From Clostridia bacterium (GTDB lineage Bacteria > Bacillota > Clostridia > UMGS1883 > UMGS1540): a stretch of 64,000 nucleotides of DNA. The DNA lies in the NCBI GenBank assembly GCA_045531205.1, contig JAZSDN010000104.1, forward strand, positions 18,100 to 82,099, in the 5' to 3' direction. The position numbers were made by a program, and so were the translations under genes. Under the pieces are notes generated by a model. It saw nothing but the letters and a program-made list of their open reading frames with translations. It had not been told where the DNA came from and did not search any database. Of this stretch, positions 3,089 through 34,487 are shown one piece after another. Position 1 is the stretch's first letter; every line of letters starts with the position of its first letter.

Positions 3089-3960
3089 TGAAAAAATCAA
3101 TTATACTAGGCAATTTTGACGGAGTACATATTGCCCACAAAAAGCTTATAGAATCAGCTTGTCAAAAAGGAAATTCAACAGCATTTATTTTTGATAAACA
3201 CCCCTCAACGCTTTTAGGCAAAAGCGTTCCTGTTATAATGCCTAACAGCATAAAAAAAGAGATTATTGAAGATTTAGGGTGCCAGGTGCATTTTGAGCCT
3301 TTGACAAGCGAGATTTTAGCAACAGAGCCCGAAAGCTTTGTAAGAGATATTCTGTGCAAAAATTTTGCACCCGATTTTGTTTTTGCGGGTTATAACTATA
3401 CCTTTGGTAAAAACGGAGCGGGCGGGGCAGACGATTTAAAAGCTTATGGCAAAAAGTACGGATTTTCTGTTGAAATTATTGATGAAATTAAATTTATGGG
3501 GAAAACTGTTTCAAGTACCCTTGTACGGGAGCTTTTGCAAAACGGGGATATAGAGAGTGCAAATAAAATTCTTTCAAAGCCCTATCGCATAAGAGCAAAG
3601 GTAACTAAAGGGAAAAAGCTTGGCAGAACTCTGGGTTTTCCTACAATAAATACAGAGTTTGAAGAAAACCTTGTAATCCCTGCCTTTGGCGTATATGTAA
3701 GCAATACCATAATAGAAGGAAAAGCCTACAAAAGTATTACTAATATAGGAACAAATCCTACAGTTGAAAATGCTGTACCTAGAGCCGAAAGCTATATATT
3801 TGATTTTTCGGAAGATTTATATGGAAAAACGGTTGATGTAATACTTTTAAAGAAGTTAAGAGACGAAAAAAAGTTTTCGGGCAAAGAAGAGCTTATGGTG
3901 GCAGTAAAAGAAGATATAAATACCGCAAAAAAGTTTTTAAATAAAATGTTTGACAAATAA
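3085..3960 (+). CDS. ribF: Bifunctional riboflavin kinase / FMN adenylyltransferase
   Basis: An N-terminal FAD synthetase nucleotidyltransferase region (GNFDGVHIAH) and a C-terminal riboflavin kinase region. The ATG overlaps the truB stop. Confidence 0.9.
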   Translation: MMKKSIILGNFDGVHIAHKKLIESACQKGNSTAFIFDKHPSTLLGKSVPVIMPNSIKKEIIEDLGCQVHFEPLTSEILATEPESFVRDILCKNFAPDFVFAGYNYTFGKNGAGGADDLKAYGKKYGFSVEIIDEIKFMGKTVSSTLVRELLQNGDIESANKILSKPYRIRAKVTKGKKLGRTLGFPTINTEFEENLVIPAFGVYVSNTIIEGKAYKSITNIGTNPTVENAVPRAESYIFDFSEDLYGKTVDVILLKKLRDEKKFSGKEELMVAVKEDINTAKKFLNKMFDK

Positions 3961-4487: not shown

Positions 4488-6578
4488 ATGGAAAGAACTT
4501 TTAGAACAGAACTTGCAGGCAGACCGCTTGTAATCGAAACAGGCAAGCTTGCACAGCTTGCAAACGGCTCGGCTCTTGTAAGATACGGCGAAACAGTTGT
4601 ACTTGCAACAGCAACAATGTCGGCAAAACCCAGAGAAGGGGTTGACTTTTTCCCTCTCTCGGTAGACTACGAAGAAAAGCTTTATTCAGTAGGTAAAATT
4701 CCGGGAAGCTTTTTGAAAAGAGAAGGCAAGCCTTCAGAAAAGGCAATCCTTACTTCAAGAGTAATCGACAGACCTATCCGTCCCTTATTCCCCGCAGACT
4801 TGCGTAACGATGTAACAGTTATCACAACAGTTATGTCAGTTGATCAGGACAACTCCCCCGAAATTGCAGCTATGATAGGTGCATCAGCCGCTATTTCAAT
4901 TTCGGACATCCCCTTTAACGGACCTATTGCAGGCGTTCAGGTTGGTCTTTGTGATGGACAGATAATCATAAACCCTGACGAAGCACAGCGTGCAGCAAGC
5001 GATTTAACTTTAACCGTTGCAGGTACAAAAAACAAGGTAAATATGATAGAAGCAGGCGCAAAAGAAGTTGACGAAGAAACTATGATGCAGGCAATACTTA
5101 TGGCTCATAAAGAAATCGTTAAGGTTTGCGAATTTATCGAAGGTATGGCTGCAGAAATCGGTAAAGAAAAGGCTTCATATCAGGAAGTAGTTGTAGAGGA
5201 AGGACTTTTCAACGAAATTAAAGAGCTTGTTGGCGAAAAGGTAAAAACAGCACTTTATACTGACGATAAGACACAGCGTGACGAAAACTTAAAACCCGTT
5301 TACGAAGAAGTTTACGCACACTTTGAAGAAAACGAAGAAATAACACCCGAAATGATAGATGCAGCAATGTACAAGCTGCAGAAATATACTGTTCGCAGAT
5401 GGATTTTAGACGAAGGCAAGCGTGTTGATGGCAGAGGATTAAACGACATCCGTCCCCTTTCGGCAGATGTAGGACTTCTCCCCAGAGTACACGGCTCGGG
5501 CCTTTTCCAGAGAGGACAGACTCAGGTTTTAACAACAGTTACATTAGGTGCTATCGGTGACGTACAGCTTCTTGACGGCATTGATATGGAAGAAAACAAA
5601 AGATATATGCACCACTATAACTTCCCCTCATACAGCGTAGGCGAAACAAGACCTTCACGCGGACCCGGACGTCGTGAAATCGGTCACGGTGCATTGGCAG
5701 AAAGAGCACTTGTACCCGTAATTCCCGATGAATCAGAATTCCCCTACACAATAAGACTTGTATCCGAAGTTTTAAGCTCCAACGGTTCAACCTCACAGGG
5801 TAGCGTATGCGGAAGCACACTTGCACTTATGGATGCAGGTGTTCCCATTAAAGCCCCTGTTGCAGGTATCTCCTGCGGTCTTGTTACAGAAGGCGACAGA
5901 TTTATTACAATGACCGACATTCAGGGACTTGAAGACTTCTTTGGCGATATGGACTTTAAGGTAGCAGGTACAAAGAAAGGTATCACAGCTATTCAGGTTG
6001 ATATAAAGATAGACGGTTTAACACCCGAAATTATTGAAAGAGCTCTTTATCAGACCAAGGAAGCAAGAATGAAGATTTTAGACGATGTAATGCTTCCCTG
6101 CATAGAAAGCCCGAGAGAATCACTTTCTAAATACGCGCCCAAGATTATTACCACCACTATCGATACAGAAAAAATCCGTGACGTTATTGGTACAGGCGGT
6201 AAGGTAATTCAGAAGATAATTGCAGATACAGGTGTTAAGATTGACATCGAAGACGACGGAAGAGTATTTATCTCAACAGTTGATGAAGAAGCAGGACAGA
6301 AGGCTCTTAACATCATCCGCGGTATAGTAAGCGACGTTGAACCCGGTCAGGAATTTGAAGGCAAGGTTGTAAGAATTATGACCTTTGGTGCTTTTGTAGA
6401 ATTCTTACCAGGTAAAGACGGACTTGTTCATATTTCAAAGCTTGACAAAAAGCGTGTTGAAAAGGTAGAAGATGTTGTAAACATTGGCGACACAGTAAAG
6501 GTAAGAGTTCTTGAAATAGACAAGATGGGCAGAATAAACCTTATGAGAATTGTGCCCGAAGAAGCAGCAACAGAATAA
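4488..6578 (+). CDS. pnp: Polynucleotide phosphorylase
   Basis: 696 aa with two RNase PH domains followed by KH and S1 domains ([15 protein letters not shown]). Conserved synteny after rpsO. Confidence 0.95.
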
Positions 6579-14701: not shown

Positions 14702-15214
14702 ATGAGCGAAAATAAAGAAGAAAAAGAAATTTTAGAAGAAACTGCACAAGAAACAGTTGAAGAAAATGCACAGCCTTCTGCAGAGCCTGAAAAAACAGAC
14801 TACTATGATAAATATTTAAGAACAGTAGCAGAGTTTGATAACTACAGAAAAAGAACACAAAAAGAAAAAGATACAATGTATCTTGACGGAAAGGCAGACT
14901 GCGTTGCTGCATTTTTACCCCTTGCAGACAATATGGAAAGATGCGTTACGGCAGCAGAAGCATCGGGCGATGTTGAAAGCCTTAAAAAAGGCATAGAGCT
15001 TATGGTAAAGCAGTTTGACGATATTTTAAAAAGTCTTAAGGTAGAACCTATTCCCGCAGTGGGCGAGGAGTTTAACCCCGAGCTTCACAATGCGGTTATG
15101 CATATAGAGGATGAAACCTGCGATACAAACACAATAGTTGAAGAGTTTCAGAAGGGCTACCGCACAGTTGACGGAAAAATTATACGTCACAGTATGGTAA
15201 AGGTAGCAAACTAA
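14702..15214 (+). CDS. grpE: Nucleotide exchange factor GrpE
   Basis: GrpE family with an acidic N-terminus and a conserved C-terminal domain. The preferred start is MSENKEEK, with AAGGAGGA upstream. The longer ORF from 14675 overlaps the hrcA stop. Confidence 0.9.
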   Translation: MSENKEEKEILEETAQETVEENAQPSAEPEKTDYYDKYLRTVAEFDNYRKRTQKEKDTMYLDGKADCVAAFLPLADNMERCVTAAEASGDVESLKKGIELMVKQFDDILKSLKVEPIPAVGEEFNPELHNAVMHIEDETCDTNTIVEEFQKGYRTVDGKIIRHSMVKVAN

Positions 15215-18817: not shown

Positions 18818-18922
18818 AAGTGTTGACTTATACAAAAAAATATAGTAGAATACTTAATGTAAATTAAATAAAATTATCCGGTTGGACGGCAAATGCCGTT
18901 TTCAAGTAAACAAAGCTTTAGG

Positions 18923-18958
18923 GTGGAGAGCTGTTTTTGGCTCTCCGCTTATTTTTTT
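18923..18958 (+). terminator. Rho-independent terminator after the dnaK operon
   Basis: Hairpin ggagagc-tgtttttg-gctctcc followed by ttattttttt. Confidence 0.65.
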
Positions 18959-19213: not shown

Positions 19214-21937
19214 ATGGGACTTTTTGAAAAGGTTTTCGGAACCTATAGCGAACGTGAAATTAAAAGAATATTACCACTTATTGATAAAATAGAAAACTAT
19301 GCAGAAAGCTTTGGCAAATTATCGGATGCCGAGCTTACACAAAAAACGGCAGAATTTAAAGAAAGACTTAAAAACGGCGAAACTTTAGACGATATTTTAC
19401 CCGAAGCTTTTGCCACTGTCAGAGAAGCATCCGCACGTGTACTCGGTATGCGCCACTTTAAGGTACAGCTTATAGGCGGTATAGTTTTGCATCAGGGCAG
19501 AATATCCGAAATGAAAACAGGTGAAGGTAAAACTCTGGTTGCAACACTTCCGGCATATTTGAATGCTTTATCGGGCAAGGGTGTGCACATTGTAACTGTA
19601 AACGATTATCTTGCAAAGCGTGACAGCGAATGGATGGGTAAGCTTTACCGCTTTTTAGGGCTTTCGGTAGGTCTTATAGTTCACGGCTTAACTCCCGAAG
19701 AGAGAAAAGCAGCCTATGCGGCAGATATAACCTATGGTACAAATAACGAAATGGGTTTTGATTACCTTCGTGACAATATGGTAATCTACAAAGAAAATAT
19801 GGTGCAAAGAGGTCATAACTTTGCAATTGTTGACGAAGTTGACTCCATTTTGATAGACGAAGCAAGAACTCCCCTTATAATAAGCGGTATGGGGGACAAG
19901 TCAAATAAGCTTTACGAGCTTGCCGATACGCTTGTAAAGGGCATGAGAGGAATAAAAATTACCGAGCTTAACGATAAGGAACTGCACGACGATTACGACG
20001 GTGACTATATTGTTGACGAAAAGGCACGTTCTGTAACCTTAACAGCAAAGGGTATAAAAAAAGCAGAAGAATTTTTCTCTATAGAAAATCTTTCTGACCC
20101 TGAAAACAGCGAAATTTCACATCACGTAAATCAGGCTATGAAAGCCTACGGCACAATGAACCGCGACCAGCAGTATGTTGTAAAAGACGGTCAGGTTTTA
20201 ATAGTTGACGAATTTACAGGCCGTATTATGCAGGGACGCCGTTACAGCGACGGTTTGCATCAGGCAATAGAAGCTAAAGAACGAGTAAAAATCGAAAACG
20301 AAAATAAAACCCTTGCAACCATTACATTCCAGAACTATTTCAGGATGTATGCAAAACTTTCGGGTATGACGGGTACTGCAAAAACCGAGGAGGAAGAATT
20401 CAGGGGCATTTACGGACTTGACGTTATTGAAATTCCTACAAACAGACCCCTTGCACGTTTTGACGAATCTGATAAGGTGTATAAAACCGAGCAGGCAAAA
20501 TTTAATGCAGTTGCCAATATGATAGAAGAAAAACACAAAACAGGTCAGCCTGTTTTGGTTGGTACTATAACAATAGAAAAATCTGAAAAATTAAGCAATA
20601 TTCTTAAAAAACGCGGTGTAAAGCACGAGGTTTTAAATGCAAAGCACCACCAGAGAGAAGCACAGATAATAGCACAGGCAGGTAAAAAAGGTGCTGTTAC
20701 CATTGCAACCAACATGGCGGGCAGAGGTACCGACATTATGCTTGGCGGTAATGCCGAATATCTTGCAAAAAGCGAAATGACACGAGTTTTAGATGAGGAT
20801 GGCGAGCCTAAATATTCAGATTTTTTAATAAACGAAGCAACAGGCTTTGCCGAAACCGATAATGCCGAAATTTTAGAGGCAAGAGAAACCTATCGTACTT
20901 TTTATGAAAAGCATAAGGTGGATGTAGACAAAGAACATGCCGAGGTTGTTGATTTGGGCGGACTTTGTATAATTGGTACAGAAAGGCACGAATCACGCCG
21001 TATTGACAATCAGCTCCGTGGCCGTGCCGGCAGACAGGGCGACCCCGGTTCATCCTGCTTCTTTATATCACTTGAGGATGATTTAATGCGTCTTTTCGGT
21101 TCTGAAAGACTTGAAGGGGTTGTAAATGCTTTAGGTCTTTCGGACGACGATGTTATAGAACATTCTATGCTTACAAAGGCAATAGAAAGTGCACAGAAAA
21201 AGGTTGAAGGCAATAACTTCCAGATTAGAAAGCACGTTCTGCAGTATGACGATGTTATGAATACTCAGCGTGAAACTATATACTCGCAAAGACAGAAGGT
21301 TTTAAACGGCGAGGATATAAGCGAAGTAATAAAGGGTATGATAGACAGTGTTGTTGAAAATATGGTTTTAACATACACAAATGCCGAAACTTCCGCTGAC
21401 TGGAACTATGCAGGATTAACAGAATATGCATCAAGTATGTTTGCACCTGTCGAAATCCCCGAAGAAGACAGACAAAAGCTTACTGACCTCTTCCGTGAAC
21501 TTGCATACAAGCTTTATGCAGAAAAGGAACAAGAGTTTGGCGAAAATATGAGGGAACTCGAAAGAGTAGTTTTACTTCGTGCGGTTGACTCAAAGTGGAT
21601 GACACATATTGACGATATGGACCAGTTAAGACAGGGCATAGGTCTTTTATCATTTGCAAAGCATAACCCTGTTACAGAATATCAGATAGTCGGCTTTGAT
21701 ATGTTTGAAGAGATGATTCAGAGTATCCGTGAAGACACGGTAAAATATCTGCTTCACGCACAGATAAACCGCCAGCCGCTTCAAAGACAGCAGGTTGCTA
21801 AAGAGGCACAGGCATCGGCAGGCGACACAAATGCCGATACAACAGTAAAAAAAGACAAAAAGGTTGGAAGAAACGACCTTTGTCCCTGCGGAAGCGGCAA
21901 AAAATATAAAAAGTGCTGCGGTGCAGACAGTCAATAA
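19214..21937 (+). CDS. secA: Preprotein translocase ATPase SecA
   Basis: 907 aa with a DEAD-like motor ([17 protein letters not shown]) and a C-terminal zinc-binding tail ([14 protein letters not shown]). Confidence 0.97.
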
Positions 21938-33728: not shown

Positions 33729-34078
33729 GGGGATGTAACGGTTTCGACGGTGGGTTTGAACCACGGGAAGCGGGCAGGGGCGAGAGACCTCTTTAAAAAC
33801 TCTTAAAATTAAATTTAAACGCTAACGACAATTTAGCATTTGCAGCCTAATTAAAGGCTGCCGTCCTACCGCATAGTACTGCGGATGCGGATAGGGTGTC
33901 ACATTAGCAGTGAACGTGACCAAAGTAAGCTTTGCCTTTGGCATGAATAATGAAGCTACCAAAAATCAAAGTTTGTTTATGGGCTTTGGTTTGAGGGAAA
34001 TTTAACCATAAACTGCGCCCGGAGATGCCTGTGCGGATAGTTTGCCGGACAGGAGTTCAACTCTCCTCATCTCCACCA
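33729..34078 (+). ncRNA. ssrA: tmRNA (ssrA) with predicted tag ANDNLAFAA
   Basis: The 5' end GGGGATGTAACGGTTTCGACGG is tRNA-like. The 3' end GGAGTTCAACTCTCCTCATCTCCACCA is a T-arm plus CCA. There is an internal tag ORF gct aac gac aat tta gca ttt gca gcc taa, and a terminator follows immediately. Confidence 0.9.
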
Positions 34079-34083
34079 GAAAA

Positions 34084-34113
34084 AAGCACTTGCAAAATTG
34101 CAAGTGCTTTTTT
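34084..34113 (+). terminator. Rho-independent terminator after ssrA (aagcacttgc-aaaatt-gcaagtgctt + T6); the flanking A-run makes it bidirectional-capable
   Basis: A perfect 10-bp stem followed by a T-run, read directly from the sequence. Confidence 0.8.
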
Positions 34114-34378
34114 CAGCGATATAAATTCCTGACGGAATTTGTGATATGTCTTCGGCGCGATATATCTTCGATGCGATATGTTGCCTTTGGCAACGAGAAA
34201 AAGGAATTTATATCATATCGCAACCGAATGAAATGAGGTTATATCGAATTTGCGAAGCAAATATATCGCACGAGCGTGAGCAAGTATATCGCTAATAAAA
34301 CCAAAATATCTCTATGGTTCTGTCTTGACAGAAAAAAGCATCGACTTTGTCGGTGCTTTTTTCAACGAAATAAATCCT
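34104..34378. repeat. ~25-bp imperfect direct repeats (GTGCTTTTTTCARCGAWATAAAT) at 34104-34129 and 34353-34378. They bracket a ~220-bp segment carrying at least 7 copies of ATATCGC/GCGATAT in both orientations
   Basis: Both repeat copies and the ATATCGC motif array were read directly from the sequence. Each direct repeat overlaps the 3' half of a terminator hairpin. Confidence 0.6.
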
Positions 34379-34487
34379 TCATATTATTTTTTATGCATAG
34401 TAAGACCAAATTGCAATTTTTTACACTTGTAGGTAAAAAATAACCATTTACATTCTGTTTGTTAAATGCTACAATAATTAGGAGTAT

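Follow-up and report, generated by a model that had tools for sequence, protein, structure and literature searches.

The tmRNA 3′ Flank and Its Element

The stretch of DNA analyzed here, referred to as the window, comprises 64,000 nucleotides (nt) of a Clostridia bacterium contig (JAZSDN010000104.1, assembly GCA_045531205.1). Its transfer-messenger RNA (tmRNA) gene, ssrA, is followed by an element built of heptamers in both orientations, which alternate with small hairpins and begin, with their leader hairpin, immediately 3′ of the CCA end of the tmRNA. Positions 34079–34328 hold one complete copy of this modular heptamer and mini-hairpin array element, which belongs to a family of gut Clostridia, and the left arm of this family is what the orphan Rfam motif Gut-1 models. 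A first-pass annotation had proposed either the remnant of an attachment-site (att) duplication or a regulator arm-type binding-site array; the data on the ssrA-flank element are best read as those of an inserted piece of DNA, and an attachment scar of a prophage or an array of regulator-binding sites fits them less well. The features of the locus, all on the forward strand, are the following:

33729–34078 (+), tmRNA (ssrA) gene, found by ARAGORN and by Rfam RF00023 (162.7 bits), with the tag ANDNLAFAA
34077–34088 (+), CAGAAAAAAGCA, the left one of two exact 12-nt direct copies, made of the final 2 nt of the tmRNA and the 5′ base of T1
34079–34114 (+), T1 (hp0), the leader hairpin, GAAAAAAGCACTTGCAA-AA-TTGCAAGTGCTTTTTTC, with 17 + 17-nt arms that are 100% complementary
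34116–34179 (+), left arm, with four G(C/T)GATAT heptamers (L1–L4) and a short hairpin directly after each; site of the Gut-1 model alignment (see below)
34116–34122 (+), heptamer L1, GCGATAT
34123–34140 (+), hairpin H1, AAATTCC-TGAC-GGAATTT
34141–34147 (+), heptamer L2, GTGATAT (one mismatch, in register)
34148–34156 (+), left-arm hairpin GTC-TTC-GGC
34157–34163 (+), heptamer L3, GCGATAT
34164–34172 (+), left-arm hairpin ATC-TTC-GAT
34173–34179 (+), heptamer L4, GCGATAT
34180–34194 (+), central hairpin GTTGCC-TTT-GGCAAC
34195–34201 (+), degenerate fifth heptamer GAGAAAA
34202–34214 (+), 13-nt segment AGGAATTTATATC, 100% complementary to 34118–34130 (the 3′ part of L1 and the 5′ arm of H1)
34215–34292 (+), right arm, with four inverted ATATCG(C/A) heptamers (R1–R4) and hairpin-containing spacers
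34215–34221 (+), heptamer R1, ATATCGC
34222–34240 (+), right-arm hairpin AACC-(11 nt)-GGTT
34241–34247 (+), heptamer R2, ATATCGA (one mismatch, in register)
34248–34262 (+), right-arm hairpin ATTTGC-GAA-GCAAAT, which includes GCGAAGC at 34252
34263–34269 (+), heptamer R3, ATATCGC
34270–34285 (+), right-arm spacer holding GCGTGAGC at 34274
34286–34292 (+), heptamer R4, ATATCGC
34293–34328 (+), 36-nt 3′ tail TAATAAAACCAAAATATCTCTATGGTTCTGTCTTGA, conserved with the tail AAATATCTtTATGGTTCTG of a relative (L034)
34329–34340 (+), right copy of the 12-nt repeat CAGAAAAAAGCA
34331–34363 (+), hairpin T2, 15 + 15 nt, 93% complementary, with an A-tract 5′ and a T-tract 3′
34364–34378 (+), T2 flank CAACGAAATAAATCC

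T1 has an A-tract on its 5′ side and a T-tract on its 3′ side, which is the form of a bidirectional intrinsic terminator, and it also serves as the terminator of the tmRNA. The four left copies of the heptamer run in one direction and the four right copies in the opposite one (FFFF-RRRR), every gap between adjacent heptamers is a small hairpin or holds one, and the termini of the element, AGCGATATA and TATATCGCT, are mutually inverted. At 12 nt, CAGAAAAAAGCA is the longest flanking repeat; in shuffled sequences, the longest averages 6.2 nt and never exceeds 9 nt. The region 34079–34380 folds with −103.6 kcal/mol (z = −8.4); the core alone (34115–34295), treated as single-stranded DNA, reaches −33.7 kcal/mol (z = −4.2), its fold being a mix of left:right heptamer helices and local hairpins. 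A generic scan of the window for any 7-mer present at least three times with hairpin spacers returned the array and one unrelated A/G-rich stretch (14716–14764), and the same scan of five shuffles gave zero matches.

Much of the initial description of this flank is borne out by these data. The direct repeats annotated at 34104–34129 and 34353–34378 are located there, with identity at 22 of 26 positions. The heptamer, for which at least seven copies had been counted, occurs in six exact copies; the higher number is reached only if one mismatch is allowed, which adds two further copies in register. The initial description does not mention the FFFF-RRRR order. The excess of the heptamer is genuine: the window contains 17 exact heptamers (six of which fall inside 177 bp) versus 5.34 ± 2.59 in shuffles, the maximum there being 12, so that none of 100 shuffles reaches 17.

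Relationship to the Gut-1 Motif

Gut-1 was described as a likely small RNA (sRNA) with covariation, from human-gut metagenomes only, and no organism or function was assigned to it (Weinberg et al. 2010, PMC2864571). Rfam curates it (RF01706) as ‘Gene; sRNA’, and the literature searched holds no paper on it after 2010. Under this name, the motif is in part known already, and no function is given for it. The literature searched did not contain the bipartite architecture, the heptamer variants GCGATAT, TCGATAT, and GCTAAAT, the association with stable-RNA genes, the adjacency of PF05635 genes, the insertion evidence, or the mini-hairpin signature reported below.

In a permissive Rfam scan, the Gut-1 model aligned full-length at 34114–34184 (+), with 33.6 bits and an E-value of 3.3e-5, which lies below the Rfam gathering score of 50 bits, and the right arm gave a weak match (16.7 bits) on the minus strand. 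The Gut-1 hallmark, three to four G(U/C)GA(A/U)AU heptamers alternating with short hairpins, is present in the left arm of the window. Two differences separate the window from the catalogued motif: its heptamer is GCGATAT instead of the GUGAAAU or GUGAUAU of Gut-1, and the Rfam model covers the left arm only, without the inverted right arm, the long-range complementarity, and the leader hairpin. The Gut-1 seed alignment with its flanks (PMC2864571, supplementary file 95) shows the same bipartite layout. For example, the seeds BAAZ01025322 and BAAZ01000095 consist of three to four GUGAUAU heptamers with hairpins, a UGCC-UGC-GGCA center, and three to four inverted AUAUCAC heptamers with hairpins. 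One seed member lies directly behind a tRNA and its terminator, and some seeds occur in tandem, at a distance of about 240 nt from each other.

Metagenome contigs were scanned for a pattern of the center hairpin plus two heptamers, which yielded at least 120 loci, designated here by L and a number. As the pattern was our own, the scan favors bipartite GYGATAT members with a TGCC-NNN-GGCA center, and many of the loci come from one abundant species. The matches listed include about 80 arrays of at least five heptamers, nearly all of the form FFF(F)RRR(R), and the consensus of the family center is (G)TGCC-TGC-GGCA(C). Two types can be distinguished: the A-type, with GTGATAT or GTGAAAT as heptamer, and the B-type, with GCGATAT, which stays under the Rfam cut-off. 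Many A-type relatives exceed this cut-off, with 53.6–80.5 bits. The leader hairpin, H1, center, distal complement, and inverted arm are common, in this order, to the window and to L098, L101, L106, L111, L171, and L062 (53.6–80.5 bits), so the B-type is linked to the A-type by a shared architecture and not by a score.

A covariance model, R1, built from seven metagenomic B-type (sub-threshold) elements with the window excluded, matched the window full-length at 34116–34292 (107.6 bits, E-value 2.7e-25), and its single further match in the 64 kb was the same locus on the opposite strand. The model also recovers L034, a locus in a Clostridia metagenome-assembled genome (MAG), where Band_7, tRNA-Lys, terminator, and array follow each other in this order. 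The heptamer of L034 is TCGATAT/ATATCGA, and its center GTTGCCTTACGGCAACGAGA and the tail closely match those of the window. The same architecture occurs behind a tmRNA in L007, with the heptamer GCTAAAT/ATTTAGC, and behind a tRNA in L062, with GTGAAAT/ATTTCAC. Since the heptamer differs by lineage in these three loci while the arms stay complementary, the two arms change together.

Hairpins, Loops, and Symmetry of the Family

The counts in this section refer to the matches listed in the metagenome scan. At least three end-to-end Watson–Crick pairs are formed by 98 of the 124 unique spacers, compared with a mean of 2.6 and a maximum of 8 in shuffles. The stems comprise 674 Watson–Crick, 9 G-T, and 11 A-C pairs, with no wobble excess and no strand bias, and the loops measure 3 nt in 52 spacers and 4 nt in 28. 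These loops are polar: read on the ATATCRC strand, 54 of the 98 hairpins have a G..A loop and a single one has the mirror form T..C, the closing pair being C-G in 81. The motif GCGN(N)AGC is found in 21 spacers on this strand versus 1 on the other, and its core CGN(N)AG in 68 versus 4.

Loops of the GCGN(N)AGC type are unusually stable DNA mini-hairpin motifs (PMC13037366; PMC3201870). The family resembles the mini-hairpin DNAs d(GCGNAGC) and d(GCGNNAGC) in that, on one defined strand, its spacers have loops of the form C(GNA)G or C(GNNA)G, and the window itself carries GCGAAGC (34252) and GCGTGAGC (34274); however, the mini-hairpin is a thermodynamic motif, not a genetic element. The literature searched contained no arrays of mini-hairpins alternating with a conserved heptamer.

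The long-range complementarity extends over 10–12 of 12 positions in 35 of 41 unique oriented elements, while the sequences of the complementary arms vary (AAATTCC, GGATCC, GAATCC, GCATTCC, GGAGCC, GAATTCC, and TTCGCC). Because the arms are inverted, both DNA strands carry an identical layout. The heptamers are invariant within the B-type, so left–right heptamer covariation gives the nested structure of RNAalifold no support either way. Taken as a whole, the family shows a modular architecture, selection for perfect hairpins, polar loops, and arms that change together.

Array length ranges from 3 to 13 units. In L167 (1398–1694), 13 consecutive GCGATAT+hairpin units run in one direction, and in L131, the left and right arms (2540–2677 and 3313–3508) flank a gene for a 123-amino-acid (aa) membrane protein. 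The viral contig L313 bears two same-direction arrays about 450 nt apart. Tandem units stand 254 nt apart in L124 and L167.

Genomic Contexts

The preferred location of the family is the 3′ end of a stable-RNA gene. The left end of the element lies directly behind such a gene, with the leader hairpin 0–1 nt after the CCA, in the following eight independent cases:

tmRNA: the window and L007
tRNA-Arg: among the matches listed, some 25 contigs of a single abundant species
tRNA-Tyr
tRNA-Asn: L183 (1–555), with 23S 3′ end, 5S, tRNA-Asn, terminator, and array, at the close of an rRNA operon
tRNA-Gln: L210
tRNA-Lys: L034
one further tRNA

The leader hairpin of L210, GAAAAAAGCACTTGCAATTGCAAGTGCTTTTTTCAG, comes from another genome and from behind a tRNA-Gln, and it differs from T1 of the window by two loop bases and nothing else, which argues that the hairpin travels with the element.

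A gene of the PF05635 family (23S_rRNA_IVP / Avd-like four-helix-bundle) directly follows the array in the A-type tRNA-Arg, tRNA-Tyr, and tRNA-Asn copies for which downstream sequence is available, and in L007. These genes lie at the following positions:

L007, 2225–2584
L101, 742–1107
L111, 4910–5266
L183, 851–1132

L111 and L183 share a sole block of 709 bp, with 83% identity, which runs from the tRNA 3′ end through the PF05635 gene. The window has no PF05635 gene, and nothing that links this family to such arrays appeared in the literature searched. The B-type copies sit between unrelated genes, and no integrase was seen in the neighborhoods of the relatives examined. In L108, both flanking genes are opposite to the canonical direction of the element, and some metagenomic contigs (L105, L167, L211, L131, and L217) hold two to three copies.

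Different kinds of repeat occur at the tmRNA 3′ flank, which looks like a hotspot for them. In L084 (6474–6882), a relative with 86% identity, the place of terminator and array behind the tmRNA is taken by an unrelated tandem repeat with a period of about 177 nt, whose units start at 6474, 6651, and 6828.

Evidence for Insertion

On the phage contig L288 (4330–4580), the element lies between the scaffold and major-capsid genes, bracketed by an 18-nt direct repeat, CCCGGCTAAGCGAGCCGC, that includes the scaffold stop codon. The related phage MT839259.1 (L338, 1100–1180) has 42 nt only between the same two genes, without the element. This filled-versus-empty pair demonstrates the insertion of at least one copy, that of L288. 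L288 has the same H1 and the same distal junction, GGAATTTATATCATATCGC, as the window, without any difference in sequence, although its GC content is 59% and that of the window 39%. A second pattern scan of viral contigs gave three genuine family members among 120 loci; the matches from a first scan of this kind were discarded as chance matches in coding sequence only.

Most members have no flanking repeat. In L176, a 14-nt flanking repeat is present and its right copy continues straight into a terminator; likewise, the right copy of the 12-nt repeat in the window continues into T2. Two models may account for this arrangement. In the first (a), T2 would be the terminator that the tmRNA had originally, the element would have inserted at its 5′ base, and the 12-nt duplication would mark the junctions. 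The close relative L083 has a single terminator, followed by CAATGAAATAAAT, which is like the T2 flank CAACGAAATAAATCC, but its stem is unlike both T1 and T2. In the second (b), T2 and CAACGAAATAAATCC would be the start (~50 nt) of a second, truncated tandem copy (hp0′, L1′, and the start of H1′), and the 250-nt period that this supposes matches the tandem copies in other members. Under both models, the T1/T2 repeat would be a by-product of the element and not an integrase att site. The att-remnant proposal is supported in part: the flank does look inserted, with its 12-nt CAGAAAAAAGCA and the resemblance between T1 and T2, but the duplication is not of the integrase type.

Several searches were made around this locus. 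A basic local alignment search (BLAST) against GenBank phages and plasmids gave no match to the element. Exact-protein look-ups for a same-species comparison (Band_7, NfeD, rhamnosidase, and P0121) had no match either. A scan of genome contigs with the over-conserved Band_7 protein, in which the best identity was 77% and tmRNA synteny was mostly lost, gave L007, L034, and L062. P0001, to which the rhamnosidase is most similar (81% identity), is found in other surroundings, where there is no tmRNA. At seven other loci, a second copy of the sequence adjacent to the tRNA end was sought up to 2.5 kb downstream, and nothing above chance was found.

A Proposed Folded, Single-Stranded Element

The explanation that we prefer, and to which we give roughly an even chance, is that of an inserted, structure-forming element, a full-length member of the Gut-1 family, that works as a folded single-stranded nucleic acid, more likely DNA than RNA. 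The element would have inserted at the 5′ base of the tmRNA terminator and would act as a folded single strand. The variable stem lengths and the unphased spacing are understandable only if the hairpins fold, which would set the heptamers at a fixed distance, and this suggests that the element functions in its folded single-stranded form. With less certainty, the relevant molecule may be DNA, which is favored because the stems show no G-U excess, the loops carry mini-hairpin motifs, both strands have the same layout, and the orientation is untied to transcription. On the ATATCRC strand, the spacers would fold into C(GNA)G or C(GNNA)G mini-hairpins, and these, whatever their stem length, would space identical heptamers evenly for a sequence-specific, probably oligomeric, binding factor, by which the element would be propagated or maintained. 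Such a partner protein, with the heptamers as its target, is hypothesized here, and the PF05635 protein is a candidate for it, by adjacency only.

A number of points weigh against this explanation. The window contains one copy only. The local hairpins are weak in this AT-rich copy, and the right arm alone has a z-score of 0.0 versus shuffles, in an energy model that has no mini-hairpin bonus. Flanking repeats of at least 12 nt are present in only three non-tandem contexts (among 28 distinct flank pairs and the phage copy), with lengths of 12, 14, and 18 nt, and the element is not associated with any recombinase, transposase, or reverse transcriptase. CAACGAAATAAATCC resembles the element’s own start, so a partial tandem duplication fits at least as well as a target duplication. 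The contig of the one close relative, L083, ends 46 nt past the tmRNA and shows neither an empty nor a filled site. The choice of DNA over RNA draws on loop statistics and published thermodynamics, and hairpin covariation does not separate the two. Both Rfam and Weinberg et al. (PMC2864571) class Gut-1 as an sRNA. T2 is, moreover, well placed to end a plus-strand transcript, and a promoter-like sequence is found at 34187–34216.

A broader proposal, which we regard as doubtful, is that Gut-1 and its relatives form a new class of small non-autonomous mobile DNA elements and not sRNA genes. They would insert at the foot of intrinsic terminators, mostly those of tRNA, tmRNA, and rRNA (rrn) operons, through a single-stranded intermediate whose mini-hairpins offer the heptamers to a cognate oligomeric protein, PF05635 being one candidate; the variable 12–18-nt duplications would reflect target-primed or replication-coupled insertion rather than a classical transposase.

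The window places a Gut-1 relative in a defined genome, directly behind ssrA. Comparison with the family also reveals the catalogued motif as only the left arm of a two-fold symmetric array, with hairpins that bear the signature of stable DNA mini-hairpins rather than that of RNA. If the element is indeed DNA in its active form, a ‘candidate sRNA’ would need reclassifying, and the family would offer a small tractable system for the recognition of folded single-stranded DNA in gut Firmicutes.

Alternative Explanations

A serious rival, though we consider it unlikely, is that the element encodes one small non-coding RNA, or two, with single-stranded heptamers that would serve an RNA-binding protein as a sponge or platform. 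In one version, a plus-strand RNA of about 250 nt would run from T1 read-through or from an internal promoter to T2; in the other, two divergent RNAs would start near the center and end at T1 (leftwards) and at T2 (rightwards). Heptamers left single-stranded between hairpins recall the CsrB/RsmZ-type protein sponges. The curation of Gut-1 (RF01706) as ‘Gene; sRNA’, rated a likely RNA with covariation, agrees with this rival, as do the bidirectional terminators at both ends of the element. A promoter search of the array region gave one decent match, TTGGCA-18-TATCAT (10/12) at 34187–34216, which is directed at the right arm and T2; however, it is not conserved in B-type or A-type relatives. The loops can be read both ways: in both arms, the G..A loops lie on the strand that runs outward from the center, which is the polarity expected of two divergent transcripts, and the GNRA-type loops GAAA, GTAA, and GTGA are present, but among the matches listed, triloops account for 52 of 98 hairpins and most tetraloops are GNCA, not GNRA. 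The stems of these matches show no G-U excess, with 9 G-T versus 11 A-C in about 700 pairs. Furthermore, the orientation relative to flanking genes is not fixed (L108), a second, inverted arm would be superfluous in an RNA sponge, and arrays vary from 3 to 13 units, with some arms separated by a gene (L167 and L131).

It is very improbable that the array acts as an operator on duplex DNA, where a transcription factor on the eight heptamers would control a neighboring promoter, that of the rhamnosidase gene here and that of the PF05635 gene in relatives. In the A-type, the last heptamer does abut a near-consensus promoter of the PF05635 gene (TTTACA-17-TATAAT/TATATT), and omega-type ribbon-helix-helix repressors recognize a WATCACW heptad, as which end-to-end ATATCAC heptads would read. 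In the window, however, T2 and 125 nt separate the array from the rhamnosidase gene, which has a promoter-like site of its own (34447–34475), and there is no sign that the element regulates this gene. Neighboring genes vary from member to member, the heptamer spacing is not phased, and the perfect hairpins with polar loops, for which there is selection, would serve no function in duplex DNA. The arm-type binding-site array of the first-pass annotation, likewise a duplex-DNA structure, fits poorly for the same kind of reason, the spacing being unphased (16–49 nt) and the spacers variable perfect hairpins.

The scar of a tmRNA-targeting island or prophage, with the 25-bp repeats as attL and attR and the heptamers as arm-type sites of an integrase or excisionase, is already largely refuted, and the chance left to it is slight. 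The 3′ ends of ssrA genes are classical integration sites, direct repeats do flank the array, and the layout, with two inverted short-repeat clusters around a small inverted-repeat core within ~180–240 bp, recalls that of lambda attP. Nevertheless, the tmRNA 3′ end is not duplicated: the longest repeat of 33979–34090 in the window is the one of 12 nt, which takes 2 nt from the gene, namely its last ‘CA’, whereas att duplications of a gene end typically measure at least 15 nt. A textbook att-type duplication, in contrast to the window, is seen in L031 (7999–8239), where the tmRNA 3′ end TTCTCCTCGCCTCCA occurs twice, 226 nt apart. Neither an integrase or excisionase nor any other recombinase family was found among ten large open reading frames (ORFs) tested between 34.4 and 58.8 kb, a set that excludes ORFs below 150 aa and three large ORFs beyond 58.8 kb. 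GC content is 0.36–0.45 in all 2-kb bins, without a step at 34 kb. Elements of this type also follow seven other stable-RNA genes and are found between ordinary genes, variable hairpins as spacers are not required in an arm-site array, and the GenBank phage and plasmid collections contain no match. For annotation, this means that the ssrA flank of the window is not an island boundary.

Three further candidates were rejected. A peptide gene across the array (e.g., 34146–34295, 49 aa) has no visible upstream ribosome-binding site, and the indels of the family are not multiples of 3; a genome-wide heptamer signal (Chi or uptake sequence) is not indicated, since the 11 copies found elsewhere in the window are oriented with the genes, as coding bias predicts; and a clustered regularly interspaced short palindromic repeat (CRISPR) array, which has cas genes and repeats of at least 23 nt with unique spacers, would not have 7-nt repeats with 9–19-nt hairpins as spacers, the sole CRISPR-family match being chance-level (CRISPR-DR38, 18.7 bits, E-value 0.73).

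Comparison with Known Elements

Repeats of the REP/BIME, REPIN, and miniature inverted-repeat (MITE)-like types (ERIC, Correia, and RUP) are non-coding, hairpin-forming, and intergenic, and often lie at the 3′ ends of transcription units. They occur as inverted pairs dispersed among unrelated loci, with occasional tandems. The window element shares their non-coding, hairpin-forming, 3′-end, inverted, and dispersed character. However, REPs and MITEs are near-identical and number tens to hundreds per genome, whereas here a 7-mer and a few modules are conserved and every hairpin is different; in addition, no RAYT or transposase was found near the element, and its flanking repeats are rare and variable in length.

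Islands and prophages at the 3′ ends of ssrA and tRNA genes have two points in common with the element, namely the position directly behind a tmRNA or tRNA gene and a short duplication at the flanks. They differ from it in that the element is about 250 bp long, without an integrase, and its junction falls after the CCA, not inside the gene.

Intervening sequence (IVS) elements lodge in stable-RNA operons and have terminal inverted repeats. The likeness to the 23S rRNA IVS with PF05635 lies in the A-type relatives and L007, which carry a PF05635 gene after the array, at the ends of tRNA, tmRNA, and rrn operons. Unlike the IVS, the family element stands outside the mature RNA, not within 23S rRNA, and the copy in the window has no PF05635 gene.

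Other Features of the Window

Downstream of the element, the Pfam families found among the ten large ORFs of 34.4–58.8 kb are GH78 rhamnosidase, CBM_4_9, SLH, and the EamA transporter, and three of these ORFs are without a match. Between 37210 and 57726 lies a cluster of CBM_4_9 and SLH-domain surface proteins together with the three unmatched ORFs (687, 352, and 356 aa). The nearby start of this accessory cluster had been pointed out in the first-pass annotation; no link between the cluster and the ssrA-flank element could be detected.

The promoter-like site of the rhamnosidase gene at 34447–34475 (+) reads TTTACA-17-TACAAT with an upstream TG and ends 13 nt before the start codon; either the transcript is nearly leaderless, or the true promoter lies further upstream. 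Elsewhere in the window, a Na+ riboswitch aptamer (RF03071, DUF1646 type) is found at 18880–18932 (+), with 45 bits versus a gathering score of 40.5, upstream of a 907-aa ORF (19214–21937).

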